From a bacterium (GTDB lineage Bacteria > UBA8248), in the NCBI GenBank assembly GCA_965261085.1, contig OZ253442.1:3744001-3808000 (forward strand): a stretch of 64,000 nt of DNA, in the 5' to 3' direction. Below are positions 44,521 through 64,000 of the stretch, one piece after another. Within the stretch, counting starts at the first letter, position 1; the number at the start of each line of letters is the position of its first letter. The position numbers and the translations under genes were made by a program. A model generated the notes under the pieces. That model worked only from the letters and a program-made list of their open reading frames with translations. It was not told where the DNA came from and searched no databases.

Positions 44521-44524
44521 CGCC

Positions 44525-45397: not shown

Positions 45398-45441
45398 AAC
45401 AAACCCCATCACCCCTCGACCGAATGTGTATGGACGCGCCC

Positions 45442-46723: not shown

Positions 46724-47234
46724 GGATTCCCCTCCTGCAGGGCGGTAACGACACCACCTCACCACAGTGTGATGCCTTCGGGAGGGCGCGTCCATCCCAT
46801 CGCTTACCCTTTGCCCGACGTAAACGCGCGCCTATGCGCTGGAGTTGTAATTCATCCGCTTGCGTTTTGATTACATCCTGCGGAAGCTAGATTCCGAACA
46901 AGAGCGGGGATATTTAATATTTTCAAATGATATCAATGGGATAGCAGGATTCCACACCCGTTGGAAATACCCTAGTATCTATAAACGGGCGAAATATGAA
47001 ATTTGCGGATATTTATTTCGGTCCGAAACAAAGCTTCATTCCCCGCAACCCCTTGTCCGGAAGGGATTCGTCCGGGAGGCGGATGCGGTTTTCTCTTTCA
47101 TGGGTCCCTGCCTTCCGGGAAGAGCGACGCCCATCTCCCCCAAGGTAGCCATCGACAGGGGAGGGATGTTATCTGGAAACAGACGCCGTCCCGTGAACGG
47201 CGTTGCGGGTCCTGCACGGGCCGCCCGCATGCGC

Positions 47235-47577: not shown

Positions 47578-48441
47578 TCACCTTCTCGCTCCATACGCGC
47601 CCATGAGATCGACCGTCGAGAACGTGCCGCCGACTTCCTCGTGGTTCGGCCCGTAAAATGAACCGTTGATGGTTCCCCAATCGAAAGTCCCATTATCCTC
47701 AACCCTTTGGTTGAGCCATTCGATATTCTCGTAACTCCCACCCGCGCTTCCACCTCTGATATTCGTGAAGGAAACATCCATCCGGGCATCACCAACAGAC
47801 GCCCTGAATTCGAGCCGGGCATCCCCCTCTATATGCTCTCCCCTGTTCGCTCCCGACGAATCCACCCCCAGCATGACGCCCTCGTAGGTGGCCGATGTCG
47901 CCGGAAGACTCCCCGACTTGTTTCCTACAGACATGCCAAAGCCCATTTCGAAATAAATGCCCCGGATGGTGGTCTCACCCACGAATGATCCGAATATGTT
48001 GTGACTCATCCATGCGCCATATCCTTCGACATCCACTTCGCCATCATCCAACGGAATGGTTTGAGACGCGCGATATAGTTCAACACCATTCCTGCTTTCA
48101 ATTCCGACGAGCTGAAAATCATTCGAGATCGAATCGTCCGCATCGACAAAGTCTCCAACGACAAATCGCTCTGAATACCCCAATGGCGCATTGCTCGCCA
48201 CGCAACCATCGAGCAAACAGGTGGTGTCAATGGTGAAATCCACCGCCTTTCCTTCTTGGTCCCGGCCATACAGATACATATCGCTCATCAGCAAAAGCGC
48301 ATCGCTATTCAACTGGGAGAGATTGTCCGCATCAGGCATCACGGCAGGTCGTTGCGGCATCCCGGAGCCGCCACCGCCCCCGCAACCGAGCGCAAGAACC
48401 GCCACCAAGGAAATCGCCAGAATGTTCCTGATCATTTTCAT
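47578..48441 (-). CDS. Lipoprotein with TbpB-like beta-barrel C-terminus
   Basis: Lipobox LALG-C followed by GGGGGSG; ATYEGVMLG; INGSFYGPNHEEVGGTF...GAYGA. Confidence 0.8.
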   Translation of the reverse strand: MKMIRNILAISLVAVLALGCGGGGGSGMPQRPAVMPDADNLSQLNSDALLLMSDMYLYGRDQEGKAVDFTIDTTCLLDGCVASNAPLGYSERFVVGDFVDADDSISNDFQLVGIESRNGVELYRASQTIPLDDGEVDVEGYGAWMSHNIFGSFVGETTIRGIYFEMGFGMSVGNKSGSLPATSATYEGVMLGVDSSGANRGEHIEGDARLEFRASVGDARMDVSFTNIRGGSAGGSYENIEWLNQRVEDNGTFDWGTINGSFYGPNHEEVGGTFSTVDLMGAYGARR

Positions 48442-48686
48442 CGTCCCCCTTGTTACGAGATATGTCCGACCGGACCCAAAGGCGGGCCGGTCTCCAAACA
48501 ACTCACGGATTCCTGGCGGGTTCCCGCCTGTTCCGACCCTTCGGGAATCGTCTTTATGGAAATTCCATTTATTCGAACGAGATTCCCTACCGGTATCGCC
48601 GGTCGATTCCCCGCGCCGCGCAAACGGATGGCCCGGCCAGGAGCGCAAGCCCGCTCGCCGGCGACCCCATGCGACGGACGCTCGCC

Positions 48687-51600: not shown

Positions 51601-52385
51601 GTGCCCAGATGCTGGGCAACGATGCCGTGGGAGACGGTATCCTCGAGAACGGGATCGAGAGCGGTGCTCTCCGTCTTGATGGTGGCGGCCTGAACGTCAA
51701 TTTTGATGTTGCCGTTGCTTTCATGTAAGGCATAGACACCATCGGAAGTCACGCCCTTCGTCGTGATGGATCCGCCGGTGAAGTCGATGTCGACGGCGCC
51801 CGTGCCCTGATGCCAGCCCAAGACGCCGCGGGACTTGACGCCCTCCGTCGTGATGTTCGTCAGCTTGGTGGAGATGTTGATGTCCTCGGTGCCTTTATGC
51901 CGGCCCAAGACGCCGTGGGAACTGTCGCCCTCCGTCGTGATGGTGCTGGTCAAGATGTCCAGGTCCGGCCCGATGCGGTAGCTCAGGTCGATGTCGATGT
52001 ACCCGGAGCCTTCATGAAGGCCATGGACGCCGTGGGCGTTTTCGTCTGTCGTATCGATGTCGACGCCTTGGGCGTAAATGTCGATTTCAACGGTGGAATC
52101 GGCGTCCTGCGTACACTCGATGCTCTCTCCGGTTCCGGGCGTGTTGCTGCACACGGCCGCAGCAGACGCCTCGCCCGCTCCGAGAACGAGCGCGGCTAGC
52201 AGCACCAGGGCGGCGAGACCCGGCAGGGCGAGGCGTCTCCGGCCGCGCGCCATCCGGCCGGGCGGAGAGGAGCGGCCCGAATTGCGATTCAACCTCGAGG
52301 CCGGAGGCCGTGCGGCCTCTCGCTCCTGACGCCCCGACCCGCTGTTCAGCCACCGTTCTATAAAGACGAAATAGATTCCGAACAT
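48687..52385 (-). CDS. Autotransporter adhesin: beta-helix-like repeats, Pro/Cys-rich linker, C-terminal beta-barrel
   Basis: Extended signal peptide ending GEASA; about 10 repeats of DIDVTGGSITTxGxxSHGIYAxH; WARLSGS barrel start; terminal FGMRF. Confidence 0.88.
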   Translation of the reverse strand: MFGIYFVFIERWLNSGSGRQEREAARPPASRLNRNSGRSSPPGRMARGRRRLALPGLAALVLLAALVLGAGEASAAAVCSNTPGTGESIECTQDADSTVEIDIYAQGVDIDTTDENAHGVHGLHEGSGYIDIDLSYRIGPDLDILTSTITTEGDSSHGVLGRHKGTEDINISTKLTNITTEGVKSRGVLGWHQGTGAVDIDFTGGSITTKGVTSDGVYALHESNGNIKIDVQAATIKTESTALDPVLEDTVSHGIVAQHLGTGAVDIDVTGGSVTTSGASSHGIYVLHQGTVTGTVDIDVTGGYITTSGASSYGVYADNASDGDGDIGVAGGSIITTNGSDSHGIRSYIRSGSTGNTSIIVRGGRITTKGIESHAVSGVYEGGAKGVLTIDLENVTILSDSTDLRNEVTFSQGVGAYHLGAGAIDIDVAGGSITTKGLLSIGIHAHHEGAGDVTIDTTDVTITTESTALHDSYRDTFSNGIYANHTSTGDIDIAVTGGSVTTKGVNSHGILAWHRSTTDLERTITVTVDDGSVTAEGAGANAIQVGQVGRLGAERAAALDEDDYRMQTVTVNGPVMGGSGEAAGVYLAGGGRVVIGPKGSVGAASGIAILATGDTPVEDGDPLMPKLHVDMKLDGRLVADVLGDDWIINDGGETTIEVNEVVLHKGATGVVEDAVAPNGAWNVTMRAEGVKVTNRTDPDPANWTVSEPAEGVVTDRDFSTEDFNETARPTCPEGLTGTPPNCATPPPPMCPPGQVGTPPDCTTPPPPMCPPGQVGTPPNCATPPPPMCPPGQVGTPPDCTTPPPPMCPPGQVGTPPNCATPPPPTTPTPTPTPTPPPPPPPPTTCPEGQVGTPPDCMTPPKRVHDGSGKAVSVFIKGGGRVVKNVFDGLGDAAADFLEGGDQVAGEPAADVIAGRNFSAEDSIEILGSPIFHEVYAPRSAVYEALPGFLLRLGGGGPDGERLTSPGSPVWARLSGSTGSHAPDRATVGAEYDFERFTAQAGLDVGMGEHFTGSISVRHVTGSADVSAPTGGGDIEAEGIGVSLDGFWKGPGGYYANGSLSLTDYDVEVKSGDDEIGVLKRDAAARGTLLNIEAGRRIKMNGKMKLTPRAWATRSEVSIDKFTDSMGARFSLDDARRLTGGVGVVAETERAWDGGTFSLRGSVDVEQKLGDAETLVDVSGEKLESKSSKTRLLLGLGGVYRKGRFSVSGEVSVGGIGSDDTRYSGRVSFGMRF
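49815..50200 (-). repeat. 57-bp coding tandem repeat CPPGQVGTPP(N/D)C(A/T)TPPPPM, about 6 units
   Basis: Visible in both DNA and protein; units alternate NCA / DCT. Confidence 0.9.
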
Positions 52386-52693
52386 GTCACCTTTCCTTTC
52401 CTCGTGCGAGACCCGAGCCGGAAGCAAACTTGGCGTTCAGGTCGCTGACAAGTCTCATTTACCGGGTATGAATGGCCCCCGCGGTGCTACGGTCGGCCGT
52501 ATAATCGTCAGTCATGTCGAAGTTTCCCGTTCAATTGCCGTTCCGTTGCCGCCGGGCCGCCCCGGCAGGGCGCCCGCAGCGCAGACGCACGAAAGCCGCC
52601 GGCGGACCGGCGGCCATGAAGGTCTTAGAGAAAGGATTGCCGCCCCGAGAGGGCGGACCGGTCCGGTCGGTCCGACCGGACGCCCGATCTAAT

Positions 52694-52812
52694 CTTGAGG
52701 CTTGAGGCTTGAGGCTTGAGGCTTGAGGCTTGAGGCTTGAGGCTTGAGGCTTGAGGCTTGAGGCTTGAGGCTTGAGGCTTGAGGCTTGAGGCTTGAGGCT
52801 TGAGGCTTGAGG
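52694..52812. repeat. Perfect heptamer tandem repeat (CTTGAGG)17
   Basis: 119 bp counted directly. Confidence 0.97.
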
Positions 52813-52817
52813 CCCTC

Positions 52818-52846
52818 AGTATATGATGACCCGACGCCTCACGCAA
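52818..52846 (-). promoter_or_regulatory. Sigma70-like promoter TTGCGT-N17-TATACT reading into the heptamer array
   Basis: Plus-strand agtata at 52818-52823 and acgcaa at 52841-52846; same motif in the second cassette. Confidence 0.6.
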
Positions 52847-53564
52847 ATTCAGGCCTCGCGCCGACTTCCCTTGATATTCCATGCGTTCCCTTTTCTTTCT
52901 TGCGTTCGTTTCACGAGGCGCGGCATGGAACCCGCAATGGGCCCGGGCGATGCGTCGAACGATACGGAGCCGGCCCCTGTGAAGGAACCGGGCGCCTCCT
53001 AGCCAAAGTCTGGTCACTTTCTAGGATAAACGATTCGGACACACCTTGTGAAACTCTAAATTCGAGGCCTGAGCAATAATCAAATTTGTGCAAATGCGGG
53101 GCCCTTGCGGGGGGCGATTCACGGGTCTTACAGCCGGAAACGAAACCCTCCGGCCGCAGGCGAGGGGAGGAGACATGAGATGTCGAAACCCCCAAGCCGC
53201 AGGAACGCGGCGCTCCGGGAGGCGATGGCGAAAGGCGAAACAGGACGGAGGCGCGGTTGCGTAGTGCGGGTGGAAGGGGAGACGGGATGGTTCCGGCGAC
53301 TCGGACCCGCCGGGATGCGCGGGAGTTTGAATTCGCCCGCTTTCGTTTTGATTACATATTGCGGAAGGCGGATTCCGGATGAAGTTAGTAAAAATAGATA
53401 TTTACAATTATATCAATAAGATAATGGAATTTCTTCGCCGATAAAAACACTCATCCGCATCTAAGCGGGCGGAAAGGCATTTATGTGCGTTCCGTAAGGA
53501 GGAACACTTCCTGCCGCTCGCGCCACCTTGTCGCCGACGGGATGCGGACACGAACTACGGAGCA

Positions 53565-54023
53565 TCATCCGGGACGCCGGCATCCCGTCCGCACCACCCG
53601 CCGCACCACCCACAACACCTTGTTGCGAATATGGACGTCTTCTGCGCGGCAGGGGGCGTGGCCGTTGTCGGCGGGGATGAGCCGGAGCCTTGGGCGTTCC
53701 TCCTCCGCGCCATCGCCGCGCACCGCCTCGACTCGTCTGGTCACAAGCCTCTCCCCGAGCCTGAGCAGGAACGCGCCTCCCGCCTCCGGGAGGCGGCTCG
53801 CGAGGTCGACCACGACCCAGTCGCCCTCGCGTATCTCAGGCTCCATCGAGTCGTCCTCCACATCGAGGATGCGCAGGTGTGTGGTCTCTTCACCTTCGTC
53901 GGTGCAATACGTCACCCGGAAAGGCTGGCAGAACTCTTCATCTCCCGTGGCGGGACCCGACCCGACGGGCTCTCCGGCCGGGGCCTCCCCGCCCGCACCG
54001 CCGTTGATGATGCAGTCCGTCAT
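53565..54023 (-). CDS. Peptidase S24 (LexA/CI C-terminal)-like protein without HTH
   Basis: VEDDSMEPEIREGDWVVVD...LVTRRV...LRLIPADN. Confidence 0.78.
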   Translation of the reverse strand: MTDCIINGGAGGEAPAGEPVGSGPATGDEEFCQPFRVTYCTDEGEETTHLRILDVEDDSMEPEIREGDWVVVDLASRLPEAGGAFLLRLGERLVTRRVEAVRGDGAEEERPRLRLIPADNGHAPCRAEDVHIRNKVLWVVRRVVRTGCRRPG

Positions 54024-54174
54024 GGGAGTCTTTCTTCCGGGTCATCCAGGCAATCGGGGACTCCGCCACGACATCCGCCGTCACACGGTCCCCGGCGATC
54101 CGTTCATGGCCTTGCGGCTTCGCGGGAGGGGCCGCTTCCCTCTATCCGGGAAGAGGGCGTCAGGCGCCTGTTCC

Positions 54175-54603
54175 TCACGGCCGCTTGACCTCCCACTCCA
54201 CCTCGCCGAGGACCTCGACGTCTTCTGCGAAGCAGGGGGCGCAGGCGGGGTTGGCGGGGATGAGCCTCAGGCGTTCGTCCTCCGCTCCATCGCCGGGCAT
54301 CGCCTCGGCTTGTCTGGCCACCAGACTCTCCCCGAGCCTGATCAGGAACTTTCCTCCCGCCTCCGGGCGCCGGCTCGCGAGGTCGACCACGACCCAATCG
54401 CCCTCGCGCAACTCAGGCTCCATCGAGTCGTCGCACACCCGCACGATGCGCAGGTGCGTGGTCTTCACGCCTTCTTCGGTGCGATGCTCCACCCAGAAAG
54501 GCTCGCCGATCTCGTTGTCGTCATCTCCCGTGTCGGGGATCAGCTCGACGGGTTCAATGAGCATGTCGTTCCCGTTACGGCCCTGTCTGGTGTCTTCCGT
54601 CAT
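54175..54603 (-). CDS. Peptidase S24-like protein without HTH (paralog)
   Basis: VCDDSMEPELREGDWVVVD...LVARQA...LRLIPANP...VEVLGEV. Confidence 0.78.
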   Translation of the reverse strand: MTEDTRQGRNGNDMLIEPVELIPDTGDDDNEIGEPFWVEHRTEEGVKTTHLRIVRVCDDSMEPELREGDWVVVDLASRRPEAGGKFLIRLGESLVARQAEAMPGDGAEDERLRLIPANPACAPCFAEDVEVLGEVEWEVKRP

Positions 54604-54707
54604 GGTGATATTCCTTTCCGGTAATCCGGGGAACCCGGTCCCCGATGTTCCGCGGGCCCTCGCCCGCATCCTTTCGCTTCACGTTCACGATTCCCGGTTG
54701 GATTCGA

Positions 54708-57700
54708 TCACCACCTCTTCGAACCCCTCAGGACGAGCCCGGCTTCGGGCTCACCGTCCCCGGCGGGTTCGGCGAGCGTGGCCTCGAGGTTCAGGGCGAA
54801 GGCGGGGCCGAGTTTCCAGCGCGCTCCCGCGCGCCAGGTCTCCCCGCCACCGGTGAGCGCCACGCCCGTATAGGGCGTCAGGAGACCGCGCCAGGCGTCC
54901 AGCCCGTAGCCCACCTCCGCGTTCAGGCCCGCGTCGGGGTCGAACTCCCCGCCCGCCACCGCGCGCTGCGCCCAGAGACGGCCCACTCCGCTCGATGACG
55001 CGCCCCAGGCGGAGCCGACCCGCACGGAGAGCCCACGGCCCTCCTCCCCGGGGGAGAGGGCGAGCGAGGCGCTCACGCCCCATTCCTCGTAATCGCGCTC
55101 CTCGTGCGCGATGAGGCCCCTTGCGCGCACCTCCATCGTGAGACCCCCGGAATTCGTCCAGCGGAGGCCGCCGCCCAGTTCTACGCCGCTTCCCGTCTCC
55201 GCGTCGCCTCCGTCGTGGCGAAGCCCTATTTCGAGGGAGGGCGTCAGCACGCCGCTTTCAAACTTCACCTCGCGCGAACCCTCCAGCGCCAGGCGCAGGC
55301 GCCGCGTCTGCGCATCCGCCGCGGCGAGTCCCGTCACCGCTTCCGACTCGGTCCGCACGAAGAGGACGTCGGTCTTGACCGCAAGGTCGTAGCCCGCGAC
55401 GGATGCGAGCTTGCCCCGGGCCCCGAACGCCGCCATCCCCATGGAGATGTCGGTCTCCATGCGCTCCACTATCCCCCCCGTGTTCTCCACCTCGAGCGTC
55501 AACCCGCCCTCGCCCAGGCCCAGGACGCCCCAGACCGAGAGGCGCTCGCTCAACGTGTAGCGCAGATAGGGGTAGGCGCTCGCGAGCGTCGATTCCAGCT
55601 CGCCCCGCGCGTCGGCCTCCGTGTAGGAACCCTCCCCCGTGCTGTAGGCGAGCGCCACGCCCGCCAGGACCCTGCCCCGCTCGTAATCAGCGCCCATCAC
55701 GCCCGTCGAGACGTCCCCCTCGAGCGTGAGCGCGTCCTCTTTGCCGCTGAAACTCGCGCGCGACCCCCGGGCCCACAGCGACCAGCGCCCGGACTCATCC
55801 TCGCCACCTGCCGAGGCCATATGAAACGAACTCGCCATCAGCAGCCCGGCCGTCGATATCTCGCCCGCTGTCGAATCGTCCGCCTCCGCCCGGAGAAGGT
55901 CCTTCGTCTCTCTCAAGTCCGGCCCGAGGACGCCTGCCTCCCCGAGGAGGGTCCCATCCGCTCCGGGCCACGAAGCGCCCAGCACCACCTGGTGGCCGCC
56001 GAGCGTCAACCGCGCCGGACCCGGAGAATTTGAATTCCCCTCGATCCGCGCGCCCACCGCGTCCAGCACCTGTTCCGCGACCGTGCGCCCGAAGCGCGCC
56101 AGCCACGCCTTGGGCATGTGGTCGGTGTTCTTGATCGTCCCCGTCGCCGTACCGTCCTCGATATACGCCCCCGTGGCGTTCGAGAGCGTGAGCGTCAGCG
56201 TCTCGCTCCCCTCGTCGTGCGCGTCGTCGAGCACAGCGACCGATACCGTCTTCGCCCTCTCGCCGGCCGCGAAGGTCAGCGCGCCGCTCACCGCCGTGTA
56301 GTCGGCGCCCGCCTTCGCCGTCCCGTCGGCGGTCGCGTAGTCCACCGTCACCCGCGACGACGGCGCCCGGTCGAGCCTCACCACGAAGGCAAGCGCCGCG
56401 TCCGGCCCCTCCTCCACCTCCGCATCCGCCACCGAGAGACCCGGCGGACCCAGGACCCTCGTCGATATCGCCGCCGACAGCGCCCGCCCGTCGCCGGTGC
56501 ACACCGCCCCCGGCGTACCGCAGGCGCGCCCACCCTCGAGCGTCACCGTCACGTCGCCAATCGAATCCGGCTTGACCGTCGCCTCCCACAGGTCCTTGCG
56601 CCGGTCCACCCGCTTCGCCTTCGTCACGCTCCCGCCGGACACCGATAAGGAGGCGTCGCGGAACGTCCGGAAGCCGATCGAGATGCCCTCGCTGAACGCG
56701 ATCCTGAGCTTGAACGCCGTCTTCCCGTCATGCTCCGCCGGCGCCTGCACGAAGCTCGCCGTCAGCGCCACGACCACTGGTTCGACCGCGGGGCCGGCCA
56801 CCGTGGCCGTCGCCGTGTTGGTCAACCGCCTGCGGTCCCCGCCCCGGGTGCAGATCGCCCCGGAGACCCCGCACTCGCGCCCGCCCGCCAGCGTGACCGT
56901 CACATCGCCCTCGCCGTCGGGCTCGACCGTGATCCGCCACAGGTCGTGGCGCCGGTCCACCCGGCGCGCCCCGGTCACCTCGCCCCCGTCCACCGTGAAC
57001 GAGGCGTCGCGCATCGACCGGAAGCCGATCCCGATCTCCTCGCTGAACGCCACCCGGAAGTGGAACGCGTCCTCCCCGTCGTGCGCCTCCGGCAGGCCCT
57101 CGAACGCCGCCGTCAGCGGCGCAGGGCCCGGACCCTCTACCGTCGTCGCGATCCCCTCCGACAGCGAACGCCCGTCCTCCGTGCAGATCGCCCCCGGCTC
57201 GTCGCACGGACGCCCCCCGTCGATCCGCATCGTCAGGTCGTCGTCCGAGCCCGGCTCGATCTCGAACTCCCACACGCGCTCGCCGTCTTCCTGTCCGCCA
57301 CCCGAACGGCCCGCCGAACGACCCGCCGCGCCTCCGCCCGGCCGGTTGTCCACCTGGCGCACCGACGTCACCCGGCCGCCCTCGACCTTCACCCCGTGCT
57401 CGCCGACGTTCTCCGGGCTCTCCTCGATCGCCTCGCTGAACGCCACCCGAACCTTGACCCGGCCCGAGCCGTCATGGTGCTCCGGCGGCGACACGAACCG
57501 CGCCTTCAGCGACCGCGCACCGCCCTCGCCGGCCGGGCACGCGTTCGTGACCGTCCCTTCGCTGTCCGCGACCGACAGGCAGGCCCTGACCGGGCTGCCG
57601 AGCTGGAAGCTCCTCGATGTCGTCGTGACGAACCCGGTCAAGGGGAGGCCGGCGTTGGTGTGACTAGCCCTGCACCCGAACCCCATCCGGAGCCGCACGG

Positions 57701-59378
57701 GGCCAGCGTCCGCCGGGATCTCGACCGAATCGAACTCCCAGTACCCCGTGGTGAACGTTTCCCACGTGAAGTCCTCCAGAAACAACGTCTCTCCGTGGCA
57801 GCCGGACCTGACATCGTCGTTGAAGTACTCGATCGCGATGGGGCCGCGAACTCCGAGAGCGCCCCATCCCGTGAAGTCGCGCCCGCTGCTCCGGTGGTGG
57901 TTGAGAAGGTTCGTCACCTTGACCCGGTAGCGGAATGTCTCGCCCCCGGTGATGCTTTCGATGTCGGCGCCACTTGCGTCAACGACCGCCAGGCTCACGA
58001 TCGGGTTTGTCGGCTGCTTCGCCCCGGTGCGCGCCGTCGCCACCTCCGACCAGGCGCCCCGGCCGATGGCGTTCCTCGCCCGCACCCGCAGCTCGTACTC
58101 GGTGGACGCGTCCAGGAAGGGATAGAGCAGAAGGCGCGTCCCCGCGGACTCGGTCCGCGCGGTCCGGGACCGTCTGTTTTCGTTTTCTGGATCGGCGGCC
58201 TTCCAGTACTTCACCTCGTAGTCGGTGATCGACCCAGCCGGAGCCGAGGCCGGCGCCGACCACTCCACCTCCAGCAGCCCCCCCGTGCGCGGGGGCGCGG
58301 TCGCCGTCACCGCGGTCGGGGCCGCGGGAGACGCCCGCAGCCGCGGCGTCACGGAGGCCGTCGAGGACCAGTCCAGGCCGGTGTCGCGCCAGTGGTAGGT
58401 ATGGGTGCCGCTCTCAAACTGTGCGTCGCTGAACGCGAACTTGTCGCTGCCGATATGCAAGACCAGCCTTGCCCTGTCGGCGGCGGTTAACGCACGGTTC
58501 AGGCTGAAATACAGGATACGATCGTCCCCGGCGGTCGCCACCCCGACTCCAACCATCGCCTCATCGATCCAGTAGCGGTTCGCGCCGAAGCTGATTCTGC
58601 GGTCGATCAGGCCACCCACCCCGGCACCGCGCCATGTCTTGTGGAATCCATACCCGATGGTCTTTCCGCTGGCTTCGGCCACCTCCCCCACCTGCACCGC
58701 CCCGCACCAGACGTCGCCCGGGTTCAGCGTGCAGGTCGTGGGCGGGAGCTCGCGCGTGATTCTGATGTTGTAGAGCGTATCGGCCATAAATACCGGGGAA
58801 CTCGCGGTACTCCTCCACTGAAGTGAGTTAGACCCCAACGCATCATCCGGGTCGATCATGACTTGGCTGGCGTCGACCATTGGGAAGGAAGTCGACCCGA
58901 TATGCAGCGTCAATGACTCCCGGAACTGACGGTTTGCGAGATTGCCTTGCTTGCCCGGCGAAAACCAAAGCTCAAGTATGGAGTCGGGACCGAGTATAGT
59001 GCCATGGATGTACTCAACGGCTTCTATTACATATTCATCGGAATCATGGGTGAATGTGCCGCTTTTACCGATGCCTCCGTAAGCGGTGGAGTGGCTGCCC
59101 TTGGGGTCGCCGTCGGCGTAGCTGATTGTCGTATAAGTCGCTTGCGTATCGACGAACCCCATATGCATCGTGGTCCTGAAGAGGATTTCGGACTCCTGCG
59201 CCTGGGCCGTGGCCGGCAGGGCGAGGGCGCAGGAGAGCGCGAGCAGCGCAGCGACGGCGAGCGCGCGTGCGGAGCGGAGGAGCCCGCCCGCCATGCGGCG
59301 CCGGAGTCCGGAAGGGGAGCCGTGATGCGCTCTTGAACCGTCGTTCCCTGGAGACGAAGCTTTCACGGATGCCGTCAT
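54708..59378 (-). CDS. Large autotransporter-like surface protein with Fn3, three repeated Ig-like modules and a Calx-beta domain
   Basis: Signal ending PATAQA; Fn3 LEVEWSAP...YELRVRARNAIGRGAWS; 3x P.HDG...FSE...GG.VT; Calx-beta VTVDYATADGTAKAGADY; AWLARFGRTVA linker; barrel ending in W. Confidence 0.88.
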   Translation of the reverse strand: MTASVKASSPGNDGSRAHHGSPSGLRRRMAGGLLRSARALAVAALLALSCALALPATAQAQESEILFRTTMHMGFVDTQATYTTISYADGDPKGSHSTAYGGIGKSGTFTHDSDEYVIEAVEYIHGTILGPDSILELWFSPGKQGNLANRQFRESLTLHIGSTSFPMVDASQVMIDPDDALGSNSLQWRSTASSPVFMADTLYNIRITRELPPTTCTLNPGDVWCGAVQVGEVAEASGKTIGYGFHKTWRGAGVGGLIDRRISFGANRYWIDEAMVGVGVATAGDDRILYFSLNRALTAADRARLVLHIGSDKFAFSDAQFESGTHTYHWRDTGLDWSSTASVTPRLRASPAAPTAVTATAPPRTGGLLEVEWSAPASAPAGSITDYEVKYWKAADPENENRRSRTARTESAGTRLLLYPFLDASTEYELRVRARNAIGRGAWSEVATARTGAKQPTNPIVSLAVVDASGADIESITGGETFRYRVKVTNLLNHHRSSGRDFTGWGALGVRGPIAIEYFNDDVRSGCHGETLFLEDFTWETFTTGYWEFDSVEIPADAGPVRLRMGFGCRASHTNAGLPLTGFVTTTSRSFQLGSPVRACLSVADSEGTVTNACPAGEGGARSLKARFVSPPEHHDGSGRVKVRVAFSEAIEESPENVGEHGVKVEGGRVTSVRQVDNRPGGGAAGRSAGRSGGGQEDGERVWEFEIEPGSDDDLTMRIDGGRPCDEPGAICTEDGRSLSEGIATTVEGPGPAPLTAAFEGLPEAHDGEDAFHFRVAFSEEIGIGFRSMRDASFTVDGGEVTGARRVDRRHDLWRITVEPDGEGDVTVTLAGGRECGVSGAICTRGGDRRRLTNTATATVAGPAVEPVVVALTASFVQAPAEHDGKTAFKLRIAFSEGISIGFRTFRDASLSVSGGSVTKAKRVDRRKDLWEATVKPDSIGDVTVTLEGGRACGTPGAVCTGDGRALSAAISTRVLGPPGLSVADAEVEEGPDAALAFVVRLDRAPSSRVTVDYATADGTAKAGADYTAVSGALTFAAGERAKTVSVAVLDDAHDEGSETLTLTLSNATGAYIEDGTATGTIKNTDHMPKAWLARFGRTVAEQVLDAVGARIEGNSNSPGPARLTLGGHQVVLGASWPGADGTLLGEAGVLGPDLRETKDLLRAEADDSTAGEISTAGLLMASSFHMASAGGEDESGRWSLWARGSRASFSGKEDALTLEGDVSTGVMGADYERGRVLAGVALAYSTGEGSYTEADARGELESTLASAYPYLRYTLSERLSVWGVLGLGEGGLTLEVENTGGIVERMETDISMGMAAFGARGKLASVAGYDLAVKTDVLFVRTESEAVTGLAAADAQTRRLRLALEGSREVKFESGVLTPSLEIGLRHDGGDAETGSGVELGGGLRWTNSGGLTMEVRARGLIAHEERDYEEWGVSASLALSPGEEGRGLSVRVGSAWGASSSGVGRLWAQRAVAGGEFDPDAGLNAEVGYGLDAWRGLLTPYTGVALTGGGETWRAGARWKLGPAFALNLEATLAEPAGDGEPEAGLVLRGSKRW

Positions 59379-59589
59379 TGTCTCACCTTTCCTTTCATGT
59401 GGTGCGCCGCCGTCCCGCACCGGTCCGGACGCAAGACCGGCGTCCGGGTCGTCCATGACTCATGCTTGTCGGTGGGGGATTCGCTGGTATTCGTCGCCAG
59501 GCGGGAATGCTCGCTTTCGGGCGCATCTGCGCCCGAAAAGGCGCACCCCCCCGGGGGGGTGAAGGCGCCGACCGGACGCCCGATCTATT

Positions 59590-59680
59590 CTTGAGGCTTG
59601 AGGCTTGAGGCTTGAGGCTTGAGGCTTGAGGCTTGAGGCTTGAGGCTTGAGGCTTGAGGCTTGAGGCTTGAGGCTTGAGG
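59590..59680. repeat. Perfect heptamer tandem repeat (CTTGAGG)13
   Basis: 91 bp counted directly. Confidence 0.97.
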
Positions 59681-59685
59681 CCCTC

Positions 59686-59714
59686 AGTATATGATGACCC
59701 GACGCCTCACGCAA
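59686..59714 (-). promoter_or_regulatory. Sigma70-like promoter TTGCGT-N17-TATACT
   Basis: Same motif and spacing as in cassette copy 1. Confidence 0.6.
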
Positions 59715-60066
59715 ATTCAGGCCTCGCGCCGACTTCCCTTGATATCCCATTCGTTCTTGTTTCTTTCTTGCGTTCGTTTCATGAGACGCCCCATGGAACC
59801 CTCACGGGCCCGGGCGATGCGTCGAACGATACGGAGCCGACCCCTGTGAAGGAACCGGGCGCCTCCTAGCCAAAATATGATCACTTTCTAGGATAAGCGA
59901 TTCGGACACACCTTGTGAAACTCTAAATTCGAGGCCTGAGCAATAATTAAATTTGTGCAAATGCGGGCCCTTGCGGGGGGGGGATTGCCCTCATCGCCCC
60001 GTCGCCGCTGCGGGGTCGGCATCGCGCAGAAACGCATCCCGTGCGGGCCGGACTCCGATGACAAGG

Positions 60067-62376
60067 TCACATGGCATCGACCTCTTCCACCATCAGCGTG
60101 TAGGTGCCCTGGCAGATGCCAAAAGCGCCTGCCGACACGTAGTAGGTGGCGCCCTCATCCGGCGTGAAATCCACCCGGCTGTTGCGGTGGTCCACGCCGA
60201 TGTCGTCATTCCTCGTGCGGGCGATCCGGTCGCCCTCCTCGTCGTAGATCCCGCGCAGATACGGGTCGGGCAGCGTGCCGTCGCCCGTCGGCGACCCCTT
60301 CAGTTCGAAGCGGTACGTCTTGTGCGCCTCCAGCTCGACCGCGAACCAGTCCTGGTCGCCGAGCGGCTCGATGTCGCCCGTGGCCGAGCCGCCGACCACC
60401 ACCCTCCCGGTCGTGGTGGAGTCGGCCGCGTAGTCGTCCGAAACCTCGGTGACCGCCAGCGTGTAGGTGCCGACATAACCGCCGTCAGCGCCTGCCGACA
60501 CGTAGTAGGTGGCGCCCTCAGCCGGCGCGAAATACACCCGGCTGTTGCGGCCCACACCGCTGTCGTAATTCGTCGTGCCGTCGATCGGCTCGCTGTCGGC
60601 ATCGTGGATCCCGAGCAGAACCGGGTTAATCAAGGTGCCGCCGCCGGTCGGCGACCCCTCCAGGTCGAACCGATAGAGCTTGTCCGCCTCCAGGGTCACC
60701 GCAAACCAGTCGGTGTCGCCGGGGGCATCGATGTTGCCCGTGGCCGAGCCGCCGACCACAACCCGGCCGGAGGTGGTGACGTCGGCCGGCAGGTCGGCGT
60801 CGCCCTCCGAGACGCTCGCCGCCTCGTCCTGGGCCTGGGCTGTCTCGGGCTCCGCCGGCGGGACGACCGTTTCCGCAGGCGGCTCGTCCTGTTCCTGTTC
60901 CTGCGCCGCTAGCCGCTCCGCCTCCAGCCGCGCCACTTCGGCCGGGTCCGCGTCGCCCACCCCGTAGCGGAACACATACGCGTTCGCACCCGCCTCCCGC
61001 GCCTCCACCCGTACGTAATACGTCCCCGCCGGCAGCGTCTCGCGCATCCACTCGTTCGCCGTGCCGGAACGCTCGCTGCTGTGCAGCACGTTGCCCTCTG
61101 CGTCCTCCAGCACCAGGTCCGCATCGGCGTCCTGGCGCCGAAGCCCAAGCGCCACCTCGCGCGGCCCGCTCAGCGTGAACCGGTACCACGCCACCCCATC
61201 GGCGCCGCCGTCCAGCGTACCCCGCGGGAACCGCGCCGCTGCCAACTCCGTGATGTCCCCGAGGTCCTCGGCCGCCGCGCGCGCCGGGTCCGCAACAGGC
61301 GGATTGCCCTCCACCGGCTCATCCACGTCGGTGACGCTGACGGTCGCGGTGGTGTCGGTCGTCTGATCCCCGTCACTCGCCCGGACAGTCAGCTCGAAGC
61401 TGGTCGAACCGGTCTCGTAGTCCTCGCCCCCGCCCGTGTAGAACAGCTCGCCGCCGGCCGCGTCGATCTCGAACAGCCCCGCCGCGTTGCCCCCCTCGAT
61501 GCTGTAGGTCACTGAACCGCCGTCCGGATCCGTCGCCGAGACCGTGCCCAGCGATATCCGGTTCGCGCTGCCGTCCGTGTTCTCCGCCAGATCGAAGCCG
61601 TAGCCCGCCTGCCCAAACGCCGGTGCTTCCGCCACGTCGGTGACGTTGACGGTCGCGGTGGTGTCGGTCGTCTGATCCCCGTCGCTCGCCCGGACAGTCA
61701 GCTCGAAGCTGGTCGAACCGGTCTCGTAGTCCTCGCCCCCGCCCGTGTAGAACAGCTCGCCGCCGGTCGCGTCGATCTCGAACAGCCCCGCCGCGTTGCC
61801 GCCCTCGATGCTGTAGGTCAGCGTGTCGCCTTCCGGGTCTACCGCCGAGACCGTGCCCAGCGATATCCGGTTCGCGCTGCCGTCCGCGTTCTCCGGGAGT
61901 TCGAAACCGTAGAACTGAGAGCCGAATGCCGGTGGCTGCTGCTGAACCTGCTCCTGCGCGACCGGCGGATCCTCTGGATCCGGGTCCGGCGCCACGATCG
62001 GCGGCGAGGTGTCCGTCACCTCGACCTCGTAGGTGCCCCGGCCGGAAAAGATCCCCGCCGCGCCCGCCGCGATGTAGTGGGTCCCGCTCTCGGTCGCCGT
62101 GAAGGTCACCCGGCTGTTGTAGCCTTCGCCCCCGTCGTCGTTCGTCGTACGCGGAATGAGATTGCCGCCGGAATCGTGGATGCCGCGCAGATAGGGATCG
62201 CTCAGCGTGCCGTCGTCCGTGGGGCCGCCTCTCAGATCGATGACGTAGGTCCGCCCCGCCACCAGCTCCACCGCGAACCAGTCGCTGTCGCCGTTGCTCC
62301 CGATGTTGCCCGTGGCCGTGTCGCCCACCGCGACGGCGCCCGTGGTCTGTACGTCGGCCGTATAATCGTCAGGCAT
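60067..62376 (-). CDS. Secreted protein with PPC (pre-peptidase C-terminal)-like repeats and two cadherin domains
   Basis: GDxDWFAVEL...DPYLRGIxD...YYVSAG repeats; duplicated ENADG...AVDPEGD...DYE...LTVRASDG...VTDV; no signal peptide; GAAAGGAAAGG ribosome-binding site. Confidence 0.85.
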   Translation of the reverse strand: MPDDYTADVQTTGAVAVGDTATGNIGSNGDSDWFAVELVAGRTYVIDLRGGPTDDGTLSDPYLRGIHDSGGNLIPRTTNDDGGEGYNSRVTFTATESGTHYIAAGAAGIFSGRGTYEVEVTDTSPPIVAPDPDPEDPPVAQEQVQQQPPAFGSQFYGFELPENADGSANRISLGTVSAVDPEGDTLTYSIEGGNAAGLFEIDATGGELFYTGGGEDYETGSTSFELTVRASDGDQTTDTTATVNVTDVAEAPAFGQAGYGFDLAENTDGSANRISLGTVSATDPDGGSVTYSIEGGNAAGLFEIDAAGGELFYTGGGEDYETGSTSFELTVRASDGDQTTDTTATVSVTDVDEPVEGNPPVADPARAAAEDLGDITELAAARFPRGTLDGGADGVAWYRFTLSGPREVALGLRRQDADADLVLEDAEGNVLHSSERSGTANEWMRETLPAGTYYVRVEAREAGANAYVFRYGVGDADPAEVARLEAERLAAQEQEQDEPPAETVVPPAEPETAQAQDEAASVSEGDADLPADVTTSGRVVVGGSATGNIDAPGDTDWFAVTLEADKLYRFDLEGSPTGGGTLINPVLLGIHDADSEPIDGTTNYDSGVGRNSRVYFAPAEGATYYVSAGADGGYVGTYTLAVTEVSDDYAADSTTTGRVVVGGSATGDIEPLGDQDWFAVELEAHKTYRFELKGSPTGDGTLPDPYLRGIYDEEGDRIARTRNDDIGVDHRNSRVDFTPDEGATYYVSAGAFGICQGTYTLMVEEVDAM
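61324..61910. repeat. Near-identical direct duplication of the cadherin module (309-bp offset)
   Basis: cacgtcggtgacg... begins at both 61324 and 61633. Confidence 0.85.
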
Positions 62377-62500
62377 GGCTGCCCCCTTTCCTTTCCCGTG
62401 CAATCAATTAAATATAAGTTCCCGTACCTTCGTCCGCCCGTACCCGTGGACGGACATCAGAGGGCCGGAGACGGAACCGCCCGGCGGTCTAGCGGACTTG

Positions 62501-62800
62501 CGATCTATTCATGAGGTTTGAGGCCTTGCGCAATATGCATCCGTGGAAACACGGATTCCCGTACACGTCATCTTTCTTCTTTCCCTTTCACGAAGCGCCC
62601 CATGAACCGGGCCCGTACGACCAAGTCGAGCGACACGGAGCCGGCTCGTGGTACGGAACCAGGCGCCTCCTGGCCAAAGTCTGATCACTTTTCAGGATAA
62701 ACGATTCGGACACACCTTGTGAAACGGGAAATTTTTGGGCTAGGGACACTTTAATTTGGGCAAATGCGGGGCCCTTGCGGGGGGGGGGGGGGCGATTGCC
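62501..62800 (-). promoter_or_regulatory. Conserved upstream cassette, copy 3 (diverged; two degenerate heptamers, G14 tract)
   Basis: cgatctatt-catgagg-tttgagg; shared core; G14 at 62779-62792. Confidence 0.7.
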
Positions 62801-62870
62801 CTCGGCGCCCCGGCGCCTCGGGTCCGGTTCGGATCGACGCCATTCTGTCCGGACCGGCGCGGACCCGCCA

Positions 62871-64000
62871 TCACATGCCGTCGACTACCCACAGCGTGTA
62901 GGTGCCCAGGTGATTGCCAGAAGCGCCTGCCGACACGTAGTAGGTGGCGCTCTCGTCCGGCGTGAAAGACACCAAGCTGTTGTTGCCCCAGCCGCCGTCG
63001 TCATTCGCCGTGCCGTCGATCAGTTCGCCGTCCTCGTCGTAGATGCCGCGCAGATACGGGTCACCCAGGGTGCCGTGGTGCGTCGGCGACCCCATCAGGT
63101 GGAAGCGGTACGTCTTGCCCTCCCCCAGATCGACTGCGAACCAGTCCCGGTCACCGGGGGTTCCGATCGTACCCGTGACCCAGCCGTCGACCGCAACCGT
63201 CCCGGTCGTGGCGGGGTCGGCCGCGTAGTCGCCGTCCGGATTCTCGCTCTCGCTGACCCTCAGCGTGTAGGTGCCGGTCCAATAATCGTGGTCAGAGCCT
63301 GCCGACACGTAGTAGGTGGCATCCTCATTCGGTGTGAAAGACACCCGGCTGTTGCGGACCCGACCGCCGTCGTCGTTCGTCGTGCCGTCGATCCGGTTGC
63401 CGCCGGCATCGTAGATCCCGCGCAGATACGTGTCACGCAAGGTGCCGCTCCACGACCAGATTCCCTCCAGGTCGAACTGGTACGTCTTGCCCGCCTCCAG
63501 GGTCACCGCGAACCAGTCCCGGTCGCCGAAGTATCCGACATTGCCCGTGGCCGAGCCGCCCACCACAACCGTCCCGGTCGTGGTGGCATCGGCCGCGTAG
63601 TCGTCGGCCGGATTCTCGCTGACCCTCAGCGTGTAGGTGCCGGTTCTATTGCTGTAACCGCCGGCCGACACGTAGTAGGTGGCGTCCTCATCCGGCGTGA
63701 AATACACCCGGGTGTCGTAGCTTGCGCCGCCGTTGTCGTTCGTCGTGCCGTCGATCAGTTCGCCGTTGGCATCGTAGATGCCGCGCAGATACGGGTTGCG
63801 CAACGTGCTGGGGCCGGTCGCCCGCGCCTCCAGCTCGAACCGATAGAGCGTGCCCGCCTCCAGGGTCACTGCAAACCAGTCCCGGTCGCCATTGTATTCG
63901 ATAGTGCCCGTGGCCGAGCCGCCGACCACAACCCTCCCGGTCGTGGTGGAGTCGTCCGCGTAGGCGTCCGCGTAGTCGTCCGTCGCGTCGCTGACCGCCA
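62871..64000 (-). CDS. PPC-like repeat secreted protein; 5' end lies outside the window
   Basis: Three repeats DDYAAD.TTTG.V.VGGSATG...GDRDWFAV...YYVSAG; ends VVDGM. Confidence 0.85.
   Translation of the reverse strand, partial: AVSDATDDYADAYADDSTTTGRVVVGGSATGTIEYNGDRDWFAVTLEAGTLYRFELEARATGPSTLRNPYLRGIYDANGELIDGTTNDNGGASYDTRVYFTPDEDATYYVSAGGYSNRTGTYTLRVSENPADDYAADATTTGTVVVGGSATGNVGYFGDRDWFAVTLEAGKTYQFDLEGIWSWSGTLRDTYLRGIYDAGGNRIDGTTNDDGGRVRNSRVSFTPNEDATYYVSAGSDHDYWTGTYTLRVSESENPDGDYAADPATTGTVAVDGWVTGTIGTPGDRDWFAVDLGEGKTYRFHLMGSPTHHGTLGDPYLRGIYDEDGELIDGTANDDGGWGNNSLVSFTPDESATYYVSAGASGNHLGTYTLWVVDGM

Follow-up and report, generated by a model that had tools for sequence, protein, structure and literature searches.

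The tandem heptamers that precede large genes at this locus raise the question of whether they are adjustable control elements of these genes or repeats that slip without consequence. In a stretch of 64,000 nucleotides of contig OZ253442.1 (hereafter the window), the original prediction placed (CTTGAGG)n arrays, which read CCTCAAG on the gene strand, in a homologous cassette upstream of three large genes starting at positions 52385, 59378 and 62376. This arrangement was recovered, with 17 units, 13 units and a two-unit relic, respectively (Table 1).

Heptamer arrays in the window and the genome

The arrays contain no mismatch and greatly exceed chance expectation: Tandem Repeats Finder reports array 1 with a period of 7, 17.1 copies and 100% matches, and array 2 with 13.1 copies and 100% matches, while 28 occurrences of the 14-mer CTTGAGGCTTGAGG were counted in the window versus none in 100 shuffles. 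A census of perfect repeats with units of 1-12 nt across the whole 4.27-Mb genome returned only four heptamer repeats of at least four units, all of which are cassette arrays and which constitute four of the five longest perfect repeats of the genome. Per gene, the tract length runs from 14 to about 190 nt. The array site of cassette copy 3 holds just two degenerate units, GCCTCAA ACCTCAT (62510-62524), followed by AATAGATCG, and the TTGCGT/TATACT motif is absent, so that the gene starting at 62376 is not currently variable.

Table 1. Coordinates of the features discussed in the text
Feature	Position	Strand	Details
W1, 1232-aa autotransporter	48687..52385	-	C-terminal beta-domain, residues 969-1210, Pfam PF03797, E 3.6e-25
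W1 leader, 308 nt from array to ATG	52386..52693	-	RBS GAAAGGAAAGG 52390-52400
Whole cassette copy 1 (core, P2, array, leader)	52386..53139	-	blastn; orthologous G008 cassette 84% identical, 787 columns
Heptamer array 1	52694..52813	-	perfect (CCTCAAG)17 on gene strand; unpaired in predicted leader centroid fold
P2 of cassette 1, promoter-like TTGCGT-N17-TATACT	52818..52846	-	4 nt before array; 8 of 12
P1, core promoter-like TTCACA-N18-TATCCT	53023..53052	-	within most conserved block GTTTCACAAGGTGTGTCCGAATCG; 9 of 12
Conserved palindrome ATTTGCACAAAT, candidate regulator site upstream of P1	53084..53095	-	cassette alignment
Two small Peptidase_S24-like ORFs	53565..54669 (53565-54023; 54175-54669)	-	Pfam PF00717, E 1.2e-8, 1.1e-9
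W2, 1556-aa surface protein (fn3, Calx-beta)	54708..59378	-	ORF and domain search
W2 leader, 211 nt	59379..59589	-	RBS 59386-59396; C7G7 hairpin 59546-59559
Heptamer array 2	59590..59681	-	perfect (CCTCAAG)13
P2 of cassette 2, promoter-like TTGCGT-N17-TATACT	59686..59714	-	custom scan
Core of cassette 2	59890..59983	-	P1 59890-59919, palindrome 59951-59962, poly-C C9 59975-59983
W3, 769-aa PPC/cadherin/Big_9 protein	60067..62376	-	ORF and domain search
Cassette copy 3	62377..62830	-	P1 62694-62723, palindrome 62754-62765, poly-C C14 62779-62792
W4, 1186 aa, PPC/cadherin, 3' part	62871..64000	-	ORF and domain search

Distribution of the cassette and its downstream genes

Cassette copies 1 and 2 share 95.2% identity over 393 nt, and copies 1 and 3 share 78.4% over 222 nt. 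A blastn search returned nine full copies and two fragments in the genome, and a large secreted or surface protein is encoded downstream of every full copy (9/9), the classes represented being autotransporter, LRR/SWM/cadherin-like, Calx-beta/fn3 and PPC/cadherin. The proposals of a portable module, here found before unrelated genes, and of its genome-wide linkage to surface genes are consistent with these results, as is that of an independent n for each gene copy: the nine full copies carry 26, 2, 0, 2, 27, 17, 13, ~2 and ~2 units, paralogues ranging from 2 to 27, while the orthologous autotransporter has 17 units in the window, 23 in G008 and 8 in G011, i.e., in three species. A frame change interrupts each of genes A and B, located downstream of two further cassettes, and, if these changes are real, two array-bearing genes are broken. 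Copies B and D possess an intact P2 yet only two units; since the array site is also collapsed at W3, W4 and one G008 copy, long arrays are not required.

Among the window genes, W1 is 77% identical in the beta-domain to its G008 orthologue and 74% identical to that of G011. In W2, the N-terminal signal region is extended and the C-terminal end is beta-barrel-like (...RGSKRW); the protein shares 90% identity with gene E (genome position 3707094) over 940 aa. No N-terminal signal peptide was seen in W3. W4 has its own cassette just past the window end, 96% identical to copy 3. The Peptidase_S24-like ORF pair is positioned between W2 and cassette 1. The W1 leader contains a relic ORF of 18 codons (52459-52515, MTDDYTADRSTAGAIHTR up to its stop), which resembles the start of the PPC-type W3 and W4.

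Promoter-like sites and leader properties

As originally described, TTGCGT-N17-TATACT (P2) is present about 5 nt before the array in copies 1 and 2, the gap being 4-5 nt. P2 matches 8 of 12 sigma-70 consensus positions, with just 3 of 6 in the -35 hexamer, and it scores too low for the promoter scanner and is therefore unlisted; in a custom scan, 1 of 300 random window positions scored as well as P2 of cassette 1. The P2 hexamers are kept in 7-8 of 8 P2-type cassettes, with a varying spacer. Across seven genomes, a -35/-10-like pair matching at least 8 of 12 positions and ending 4-9 nt before the array accompanies 11 of 14 arrays, with no more than 5 of 300 random positions of the same locus scoring equally well in each case. 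In several cases these array-flanking promoter sequences are mutually unrelated, e.g., TTGACA-N17-TAATTT in G011, TTGACG-N18-CATATT in G008 and TTGAAA-N17-TAAATT in G009.

In all four cassettes scanned, the scanner lists the core site P1, which lies about 205 nt upstream of the array (two sites found versus 0.3 expected), and GTTTCACAA is invariant in 18/18 aligned cassettes. Because P1 scores better and lies upstream, it is uncertain that the array is located at the transcript 5' end; if P1 is used, the array would be in the middle of the leader instead. Of 11 genomic occurrences of the palindrome motif ATTTGCNCAAAT, eight are in cassettes. The ribosome-binding site GAAAGGAAAGG is shared by the three window genes, in agreement with the original prediction, and each of the seven exact genome-wide matches to this 11-mer with a downstream ORF of 150 aa or more belongs to a cassette gene.

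The sense strand is the C-rich strand in 14/14 arrays that have a gene about 5-310 nt downstream. The array RNA is C-rich and G-poor, is predicted to be unstructured, and is unpaired in the centroid folds of both the W1 and W2 leaders, whose structure does not exceed that of shuffles (z = 0.23 and 1.62). A hairpin partner for the array was sought in the leaders of seven loci and none was found, pairing being no better than in shuffles at 7/7. Furthermore, the scanner returned no terminator-like sites in the leaders, and no Rfam family matched.

Conservation and turnover in relatives

Cassette DNA was detected in one of 40 relatives searched, G008, a second species of the genus, where cassettes precede genes for an S8 peptidase, autotransporters, and Calx-beta/fn3, RTX and TbpB-like proteins, and where three copies carry the CCTCAAG unit with n = 22, 23 and 29. 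Arrays of at least four CCTCAAG units are present in five of 51 genomes of the phylum, including the present genome (G000); among these, G032, from another family of the class, has n = 12, and its upstream sequence can be aligned to the cassette core. Comparison of G000 with G008 gives 81% identity for the 298 nt preceding the array, yet the seven long arrays of these two genomes (157 units) contain zero substitutions. With n differing among orthologues, uninterrupted arrays and flanks about 81-84% identical, array turnover by slippage is much faster than point mutation. Two metagenome scans for population-level variation found nothing.

The arrays are not confined to adhesin genes, as in relatives they are also found before genes for a metallo-beta-lactamase-fold protein and a PAP2-like lipoprotein. 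In the congener G015, (CCGAACT)20 lies between SD plus ATG and the signal-peptide frame, both copies being out of frame, which argues that heptamer arrays serve as switches in this lineage. More widely, at least 119 stretches with CCTCAAG-unit arrays were found in many phyla; by a crude gene call, 57 are intergenic, with 11 at the sense 5' side only, 20 at the antisense 5' side only, six divergent and 20 neither. This lack of a sense-strand preference across phyla speaks against a universal RNA role of the unit, which may simply be slippage-prone.

Possible functions of the arrays

We favour, at a probability of roughly 0.55 and based on sequence and on analogy with hmw, a graded leader rheostat with Rho loading or decay as the preferred route. 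The cassette would represent a common upstream control region of a set of secreted/surface-protein genes, consisting of a conserved core (the palindrome and P1) and, in a subset of copies, a second module composed of P2, the 4-5 nt gap, the perfect (CCTCAAG)n tract and an untranslated leader of 200-300 nt. As a hypermutable simple sequence repeat, the tract would be lengthened or shortened by slipped-strand mispairing, independently at each locus, so that each gene would have its own length of unstructured, C-rich and G-poor leader RNA. Expression of the downstream gene would then be graded by tract length, with less output from longer tracts, and at least about 10 units (at least 70 nt) may provide a Rho-loading (rut-like) or decay-prone untranslated stretch. 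The Rho route is suggested solely by base composition; a rho gene is present in the genome. Beside the anatomy, genome-wide restriction, cross-species conservation of position and unit, n differences and gene classes observed above, this reading has us infer the transcription start, within-population instability and an effect on expression.

It is possible, though doubtful, that the arrays are neutral or selfish products of slippage, tolerated in an untranslated leader and spread by duplication and recombination of the cassette, so that n varies without an effect on the gene. The occurrence of the same heptamer in many phyla and in every orientation to genes would fit this, as would the coexistence of n = 1-2 copies with intact promoter motifs and long genes, and the absence of a conserved RNA structure, hairpin partner or terminator tied to the array; moreover, the cassettes are paralogous, and their common position and orientation are therefore partly inherited. 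It is less easily reconciled with arrays that lie 4-9 nt past a -10-like hexamer, behind several unrelated promoters and before unrelated genes, that persist over family-level divergence, and that have no counterpart among long heptamer repeats elsewhere in the genome, nor with the G015 array, whose location makes an effect on translation unavoidable.

A three-phase switch through an upstream ORF appears unlikely. Here, P1 transcripts would carry a short ORF that begins at a conserved ATG, 70 nt ahead of the array and preceded by the SD-like run GAAAGAAAAGGGAA, and continues through P2 and the array; since 7 is not divisible by 3, the value of n mod 3 would set the stop just after the array, in mid-leader or at the main RBS, and only in the frame reaching the RBS would translation be coupled to that of the main gene and the leader be shielded from polarity. 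Such an ATG (or an earlier in-frame start) with an open frame is found in 6/6 P2-type arrays checked in G000 and G008, and at -73 in G032, while the other two frames are shut 3-42 nt before the array and have no start codon. Leaders of the W2/E type have stops at +2, +127 and +192/+207, the last being a TGA inside CATGAAAGG at the RBS, and G015 offers a true coding-region version in the same gene family. However, an open frame of 23 codons is weak evidence in GC-rich DNA, the peptide is unconserved, with mostly non-synonymous substitutions by reading of the alignment, and conservation is centred on the P2 hexamers rather than on codons. Furthermore, no frame reaches the RBS in W1 (post-array stops at +2, +66 and +160) or its G008 orthologue, and none of the long arrays checked in these two genomes is in the RBS-reaching frame, meaning that either all are OFF or the model is wrong. 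Less likely still is a binding platform, in which repeated CCUCAAG, or its DNA, would offer a protein or small RNA multiple binding sites, with n setting their occupancy. The unit is constant across species while the flanks diverge, a second unit in congeners, GAACTCC, likewise gives a sense-strand CUC every 7 nt, and the post-array flank ..TAGATCG.. is kept within the genus; against this, slippage alone accounts for perfect homogeneity, a 7-bp period cannot hold sites on one helix face, no Rfam family or candidate binder was found, and the genome holds no complement elsewhere, the 14-mer being confined to the arrays.

Comparison with known systems

The graded rheostat has its closest model in the (ATCTTTC)n repeats of Haemophilus influenzae hmw1A/hmw2A (see also PMC8262952, PMC2424069, PMC10127715), and the analogy drawn originally is apt. 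According to PMC12721329, these repeats lie in the 5'-UTR downstream of the promoter and vary between 11 and 63 units with no correlation between paralogues, and higher n goes with lower expression. Both systems have a perfect heptamer between promoter and start codon of a large surface-protein (in hmw, adhesin) gene, several paralogous loci per genome with uncorrelated n, a similar n range (13-29 here), a pyrimidine-rich, G-poor sense-strand unit, and mosaic, recombining paralogues with 5' ends in common; copies with n = 1-2 occur here, whereas the hmw floor is 11. The present cassettes further differ in having no G-rich arm and no long hairpin, in existing as nine copies with a common upstream core, in preceding genes for autotransporter/beta-barrel-anchored proteins rather than for two-partner-secretion HMW1A, and in belonging to an uncultured environmental/symbiotic lineage rather than a human pathogen.

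Neisseria opa genes carry a pentamer CTCTT repeat in the signal-peptide region, which acts as a coding-region switch. Both systems have, at the 5' end of genes for surface proteins, a repeat whose unit length is not divisible by 3, and the G015 array resembles opa in its position. The window arrays, in contrast, are outside the main ORF, which starts from a separate RBS and ATG located 211-308 nt further on; of the three frames, two are shut shortly before the array and lack a start codon. Cyanobacterial STRR sequences are intergenic heptanucleotide repeats with many dispersed copies per genome; tandem heptamers in intergenic DNA are likewise found here, and similar short arrays of this and related heptamers are widespread in other phyla, but the present genome has only four arrays, all at one defined cassette site. 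By analogy with the Haemophilus adhesin repeats, the heptamer arrays probably act as mutation-driven volume knobs, and the system is best described as a probable leader rheostat of the hmw type, in a new lineage.

A repeated cassette with heptamer arrays precedes large surface-protein genes

A homologous cassette had been proposed to precede the genes starting at positions 52385, 59378 and 62376 of the window (W1, W2 and W3), and reading and alignment of the three intergenic regions bore this out; the predicted heptamer counts of 17, 13 and about 2 were likewise reproduced, by Tandem Repeats Finder for the first two copies and by reading for the third. Because the genes discussed are all on the minus strand, the unit reads CCTCAAG on the gene strand. 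In blastn comparisons the cassettes of copies 1 and 2 are 95.2% identical over 393 nt and those of copies 1 and 3 are 78.4% identical over 222 nt, with copy 3 carrying two degenerate units only and no TTGCGT/TATACT motif. The 14-mer of the heptamer array occurs 28 times in the window, as opposed to 0 occurrences in 100 shuffles, and the cassette-array arrangement is real and highly non-random. The ribosome-binding site GAAAGGAAAGG is indeed common to all three genes, and its exact 11-mer followed by an ORF of at least 150 aa was encountered in seven cases genome-wide, all seven being cassette genes. Pfam assigned Autotransporter beta-domain, Calx-beta, fn3, PPC and cadherin domains, and no TPS domain.

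Table. Coordinates and contents of the cassette copies and associated features. Locations are window positions unless a genome or stretch (L-number) prefix is given; n, number of heptamer units.
Feature	Location	Strand	n	Description
W1	48687-52385	-	17	1232-aa autotransporter
W2	54708-59378	-	13	1556-aa fn3/Calx-beta protein; extended signal region, beta-barrel-like C-terminus
W3	60067-62376	-	~2	769-aa PPC/cadherin/Big_9 protein
W4	from 62871 past window end	-	~2	PPC/cadherin; cassette just past window end
Copy A	genome 1167286-1170969		26	LRR/SWM/cadherin-like gene
Copy A, other-frame ORF	L009:618-3452			944 aa
Copy B	L010:3696-5873		2	LRR/fn3 gene
Copy B, other-frame ORF	L010:5629-9000			at least 1124 aa
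Copy C			0	cadherin/PPC gene; cassette truncated
Copy D			2	173-aa remnant
Copy E			27	cadherin-like/Calx-beta, 2311 aa
Array 1	52694-52813		17.1	period 7, 100% matches
Array 2	59590-59681		13.1	period 7, 100% matches
Copy 3 units	62510-62524		2	degenerate
Promoter-like site, cassette 1	52800-52827	+		TTGAGG-N16-TATGAT, 9/12
Promoter-like site, cassette 2	59668-59695	+		TTGAGG-N16-TATGAT, 9/12
Relic in W1 leader	52459-52515	-		18 codons
Poly-C, cassette 3	62779-62792			C14
Poly-C, cassette 2	59975-59983			C9
Hairpin in W2 leader	59546-59559	-		C7G7
Small ORF	53565-54023	-		Peptidase_S24-like
Small ORF	54175-54669	-		Peptidase_S24-like
Mobile/defence cluster	42202-46795			upstream of locus
Transposase	42202-44520			IS66 family
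Druantia protein	44483-45397			DruA-like
Transposase	45698-46795			IS110 family
Lipoprotein ORF	47578-48648			TbpB-like; after mobile/defence cluster
Two integrases	L013:5474-7749			phage-type; just past W4
Regulator gene	L009:7784-8674	-		LysR-type, 296 aa
Regulator gene	L011:14458-15348	-		LysR-type, 296 aa
Core fragment	genome 1172744-1172819			
Core fragment	genome 2489418-2489477			
(GAACTCC)n, G015	L172:4302-4441	+	20	relative of the window's host
(GAACTCC)n, G015	L173	-	20	second copy
(GAACTCC)n, G009	L174	-	14	relative of the window's host

The W1 leader harbours an 18-codon relic, MTDDYTADRSTAGAIHTR*, which corresponds to the N-terminus of the PPC-type genes (W3, W4 and C), indicating that the cassette has recombined between unrelated genes; the entire leader is 84% conserved in the W1 orthologue of a second species of the genus (G008). 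At the 5' edge of cassette 3 lies the longest homopolymer of the genome, a C14 tract, the equivalent site being C9 in cassette 2, C6 in cassette 1 and an interrupted CCACCCC elsewhere; located some 12 nt upstream of the core palindrome, this poly-C tract may represent a second slippage-prone tract. A perfect C7G7 hairpin, CACCCCCCCGGGGGGGTG, which consists of two adjoining homopolymer tracts, follows the array in the W2 leader and likewise in copy E. Two small Peptidase_S24-like ORFs are situated between W2 and cassette 1 on the same strand, while a mobile/defence cluster and a TbpB-like lipoprotein ORF are found at one side of the locus and two phage-type integrases at the other.

Distribution of the cassette across the genome

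The host genome (G000) is represented by a single 4.27-Mb contig with a G+C content of 58.7%, in which a blastn search for further cassettes, a check set out with the original prediction, identified nine full copies and two fragments. The repeat number differs among these paralogues (n = 2, 2, 13, 17, 26 and 27). When the perfect repeats of the genome were tallied for unit lengths of 1-12 nt, the four cassette arrays proved to be all the heptamer repeats of at least four units, and they are among the five longest perfect repeats.

Of the two modules of the cassette, one is a core of approximately 210 nt, present in every copy and including the palindrome ATTTGCNCAAAT, the invariant GTTTCACAA and TTATCCT; the other consists of TTGCGT-N17-TATACT, the array, the flank A(A/T)TAGATCGGG and a leader of 200-300 nt. 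Cassettes A and D each have a gene for a LysR-type regulator immediately upstream, itself headed by a core fragment with the palindrome, GTTTCACAA and TTATCCT, and the two proteins are candidates for regulating the core promoter.

For both gene A and gene B, a long overlapping ORF carries on in another frame, no obvious homopolymer being seen at either overlap; these frame splits could be real frameshifts or assembly errors. A correspondence between collapsed arrays and decayed genes is not supported, since gene B (n = 2) has a continuation of at least 1124 aa in another frame. Copies with one or two units retain intact promoter motifs, which speaks against a special role of the array.

Position of the arrays relative to candidate promoters

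Two promoter-like motifs are found on the gene strand of the cassette. P1, TTCACA-N18-TATCCT in the core, scores 9/12, lies approximately 205 nt upstream of the array and was called by a promoter scanner in all four cassettes scanned, while P2, TTGCGT-N17-TATACT, scores 8/12 and ends 4 nt before the array. P2 had been predicted just ahead of the arrays of copies 1 and 2, where it is present and ends 4-5 nt before the first unit; it is missing from copy 3. Among P2-type cassettes TTGCGT is conserved in eight of eight and TATACT in seven of eight, and the site is supported by this conservation of the hexamers while the spacer varies, but its -35 matches the consensus at only three of six positions and a standard scanner lists only the upstream P1. 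The array would thus constitute the +1 region of a P2 transcript or lie some 205 nt into a P1 transcript, and in either case it would be part of the leader of the downstream gene. As at the hmw loci of Haemophilus influenzae, large genes for surface proteins here have a perfect heptamer repeat placed between a promoter-like site and their start codon.

A custom scan for a -35/-10 pair ending 3-9 nt before the array was applied to 14 arrays from seven genomes, and a pair scoring at least 8/12 preceded eleven of these, each being matched by at most 5 of 300 random positions of the same locus. The exceptions were the W1 orthologue of G008 and the array of the relative G003 (both scoring 7), as well as that of G032, a member of another family, for which no pair qualified under the rule though TTGACT-N18-TTAAAT is visible. 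Several of the array-proximal promoter-like pairs are unrelated to each other in sequence. A promoter-like site is also present on the plus strand at arrays 1 and 2, with the array unit as its -35; it would fire away from the gene and into the core, with a spacing that is independent of n.

Array variation and conservation among relatives

Cassette DNA was detected in one of the 40 relatives searched, i.e., G008, where the genes behind the core encode an S8 peptidase, autotransporters, Calx-beta/fn3 and RTX proteins and a TbpB-like lipoprotein. Three of its cassettes carry CCTCAAG arrays (n = 22, 23 and 29) and one other copy has a collapsed site. The n = 23 cassette heads the W1 orthologue and is 84% identical to that of W1 over 787 columns; the two proteins have the N-terminus MFGI.FVFIERWLN in common and beta-domains that are 77% identical.

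CCTCAAG arrays of at least four units occur in five of 51 genomes of the phylum, G000 included. In G011, a W1-type autotransporter gene (74% identity) is preceded by TTGACA-N17-TAATTT, 4 nt and (CCTCAAG)8, and a second array (n = 10) precedes a gene for a PAP2-like Tat lipoprotein, the orthologue of which in G003 has at least seven units in an array cut by the contig end. In G032, an array with n = 12 and an upstream region aligning with the cassette core precede the gene for a Calx-beta/Big_12 protein of at least 1566 aa. Conservation of this arrangement predates the split between two families. Scans of metagenomes returned no stretch with the array 3' junction pattern and none with the core 21-mer.

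The orthologous autotransporter carries 17, 23 and 8 units in the three species G000, G008 and G011. The 298 nt before the array are 81% identical between G000 and G008, and the array flanks diverge by 16-19%; under point mutation alone, a 119-nt tract at the same divergence would be expected to accumulate approximately 20 differences, yet none of the 157 units in seven long arrays of these two genomes carries a substitution. This is the signature of tracts that are probably renewed by slippage, at a rate far above that of point mutation, and of the indirect evidence for hypermutability it is the strongest. On an evolutionary scale the arrays are dynamic, and they are tied to genes of the secretome.

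A pattern search with the exact mirror sequence, included as a control, brought to light (GAACTCC)n arrays in two congeners of the window's host, G015 and G009, with the C-rich strand as the sense strand. The G015 array is flanked by a Shine-Dalgarno sequence with an ATG, 47 nt upstream, and by the sole frame encoding the signal peptide of a fn3/Calx-beta/PPC protein of 1400-1500 aa. With n = 20, the frame of this ATG ends 5 nt past the array, and both copies are out of frame. As judged from sequence, this is the architecture of a classical translational switch, indicating that heptamer tracts at the 5' ends of this gene family would be used in more than one way.

Alternative explanations

Several other ways in which the array or the core could act were considered. 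A switch based on promoter spacing or an upstream site does not fit, as the array lies downstream of the -10 of both candidate promoters. A coding-region switch such as that of G015 was rejected for the window, as the main ATG lies 211-308 nt downstream of the array; stop codons intervene in all frames in W1 and in two of three in W2. Ahead of the array, two of three frames are closed 3-26 nt upstream and lack a start codon, while the third opens at a conserved ATG 70 nt upstream, so that n mod 3 could set the stop of an upstream ORF; the peptide is not conserved, however, and this option is therefore ranked as improbable. A small conserved protein in the core is contradicted by copy E, in which the 24-codon ORF of W1 and W2 is frame-shifted. 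A structured cis-regulatory RNA, i.e., a riboswitch or leader family, was likewise dismissed: Rfam gave no match at E-values up to 1 across window positions 48000-64000, and RNAalifold on 18 cassette cores returned three pairs, none of which covary. In view of this lack of RNA structure and Rfam matches, the core reads as a DNA-level control sequence.

A hairpin of the hmw type was also rejected. The array is unpaired in centroid folds of the natural leaders, whose stability does not exceed that of shuffles (z = 0.23 and 1.62), and the duplex energy of ten units with the 300-nt leader falls within the shuffle range at all seven loci, at least 4 of 20 shuffles doing as well. Terminator-like hairpins seen by eye after the arrays were not upheld, a scanner having detected no intrinsic terminator in any of the leaders of W1, W2, A and E. 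Finally, a universal role of (CCUCAAG)n on the sense strand is unsupported. CCTCAAG arrays of at least four units are found in no fewer than 119 stretches, spread over many phyla or groups (Planctomycetota, Pseudomonas, Myxococcales, Wallbacteria, Acidobacteriota and others; loci L034-L113), most having 4-7 units among other degenerate heptamers. In a survey of 78 loci using crude gene calls, from which two loci of the window's own genus were left out, the 57 intergenic arrays showed no strand preference (11 sense-5' only, 20 antisense-5' only, 6 divergent and 20 neither), while the 21 loci called 'coding sense' are subject to bias, the array being free of stop codons on the sense strand. The heptamer unit as such is without universal function.

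A putative contingency module and its possible mechanism

The best available reading of the cassette arrays on comparative grounds, to which we assign a probability of roughly 55%, is that of a contingency or rheostat module, in agreement with the original prediction. The closest known system is that of hmw1A/hmw2A in H. influenzae. A report on these loci describes a heptamer tract in the 5'-UTR behind promoter P2, with n ranging from 11 to 63 without correlation between paralogues, expression that drops as n grows, and a long hairpin in which about ten repeats pair with a downstream G-rich arm and which is cut by RNase III (PMC12721329). The anatomy and the variation of n from paralogue to paralogue are alike in the two systems. 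In contrast, the hairpin that defines the hmw system is absent here, the genes are not two-partner-secretion HMW1A-type adhesins, and the loci form a nine-copy cassette with a common core that tolerates collapsed tracts. The repeat string was absent from the literature searched.

Rho-loading regions are typically unstructured, C-rich, G-poor and untranslated RNA. The unit contains three C and one G, and the long arrays, of 91-189 nt, are predicted to be unstructured, C-rich, G-poor and untranslated, with no start codon between P2 and the array; rho, MutS homologues and an RNase III gene are all present in the genome. The sequence is thus predicted to provide what a rut site calls for, namely an unstructured, C-rich, G-poor, untranslated leader of at least 70-80 nt in a genome with rho. 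It is a possible though doubtful extension that this represents a class-wide control cassette for symbiosis-type surface proteins, in which a C-rich heptamer tract, prone to slippage and placed exactly at the transcription start, would act as a length-tunable Rho-loading site, the length of naked rut-like RNA setting the output of each paralogue, and in which the tract would have moved, within the gene family, between the leader (as a rheostat) and the segment from start codon to signal peptide (as an ON/OFF frame switch, in G015). If true, this would provide a hairpin-independent mechanism for repeat rheostats, and no contingency-locus system would have been described earlier from a symbiont lineage that is uncultured and non-pathogenic. 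Should n tune expression, the loci would offer a natural counter-example to the hairpin/RNase III model of hmw, as no hairpin partner was found here.

Biological significance

Phase variation driven by repeats is usually seen as a property of host-adapted pathogens with small genomes, and a literature search on phase variation or contingency loci in sponge symbionts, judged by title and abstract, returned nothing relevant. Here, the logic of phase variation appears in an uncultured lineage, before eukaryote-like surface proteins (LRR, cadherin, fn3, SRCR, Calx-beta and autotransporters). The array loci are break points of short-read assemblies, and long-read metagenomes could show heterogeneity within populations directly. 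If n tunes expression, standing surface diversity would be generated without sensing, which would bear on the persistence of symbionts in a host that takes up its food by phagocytosis and encounters phages.
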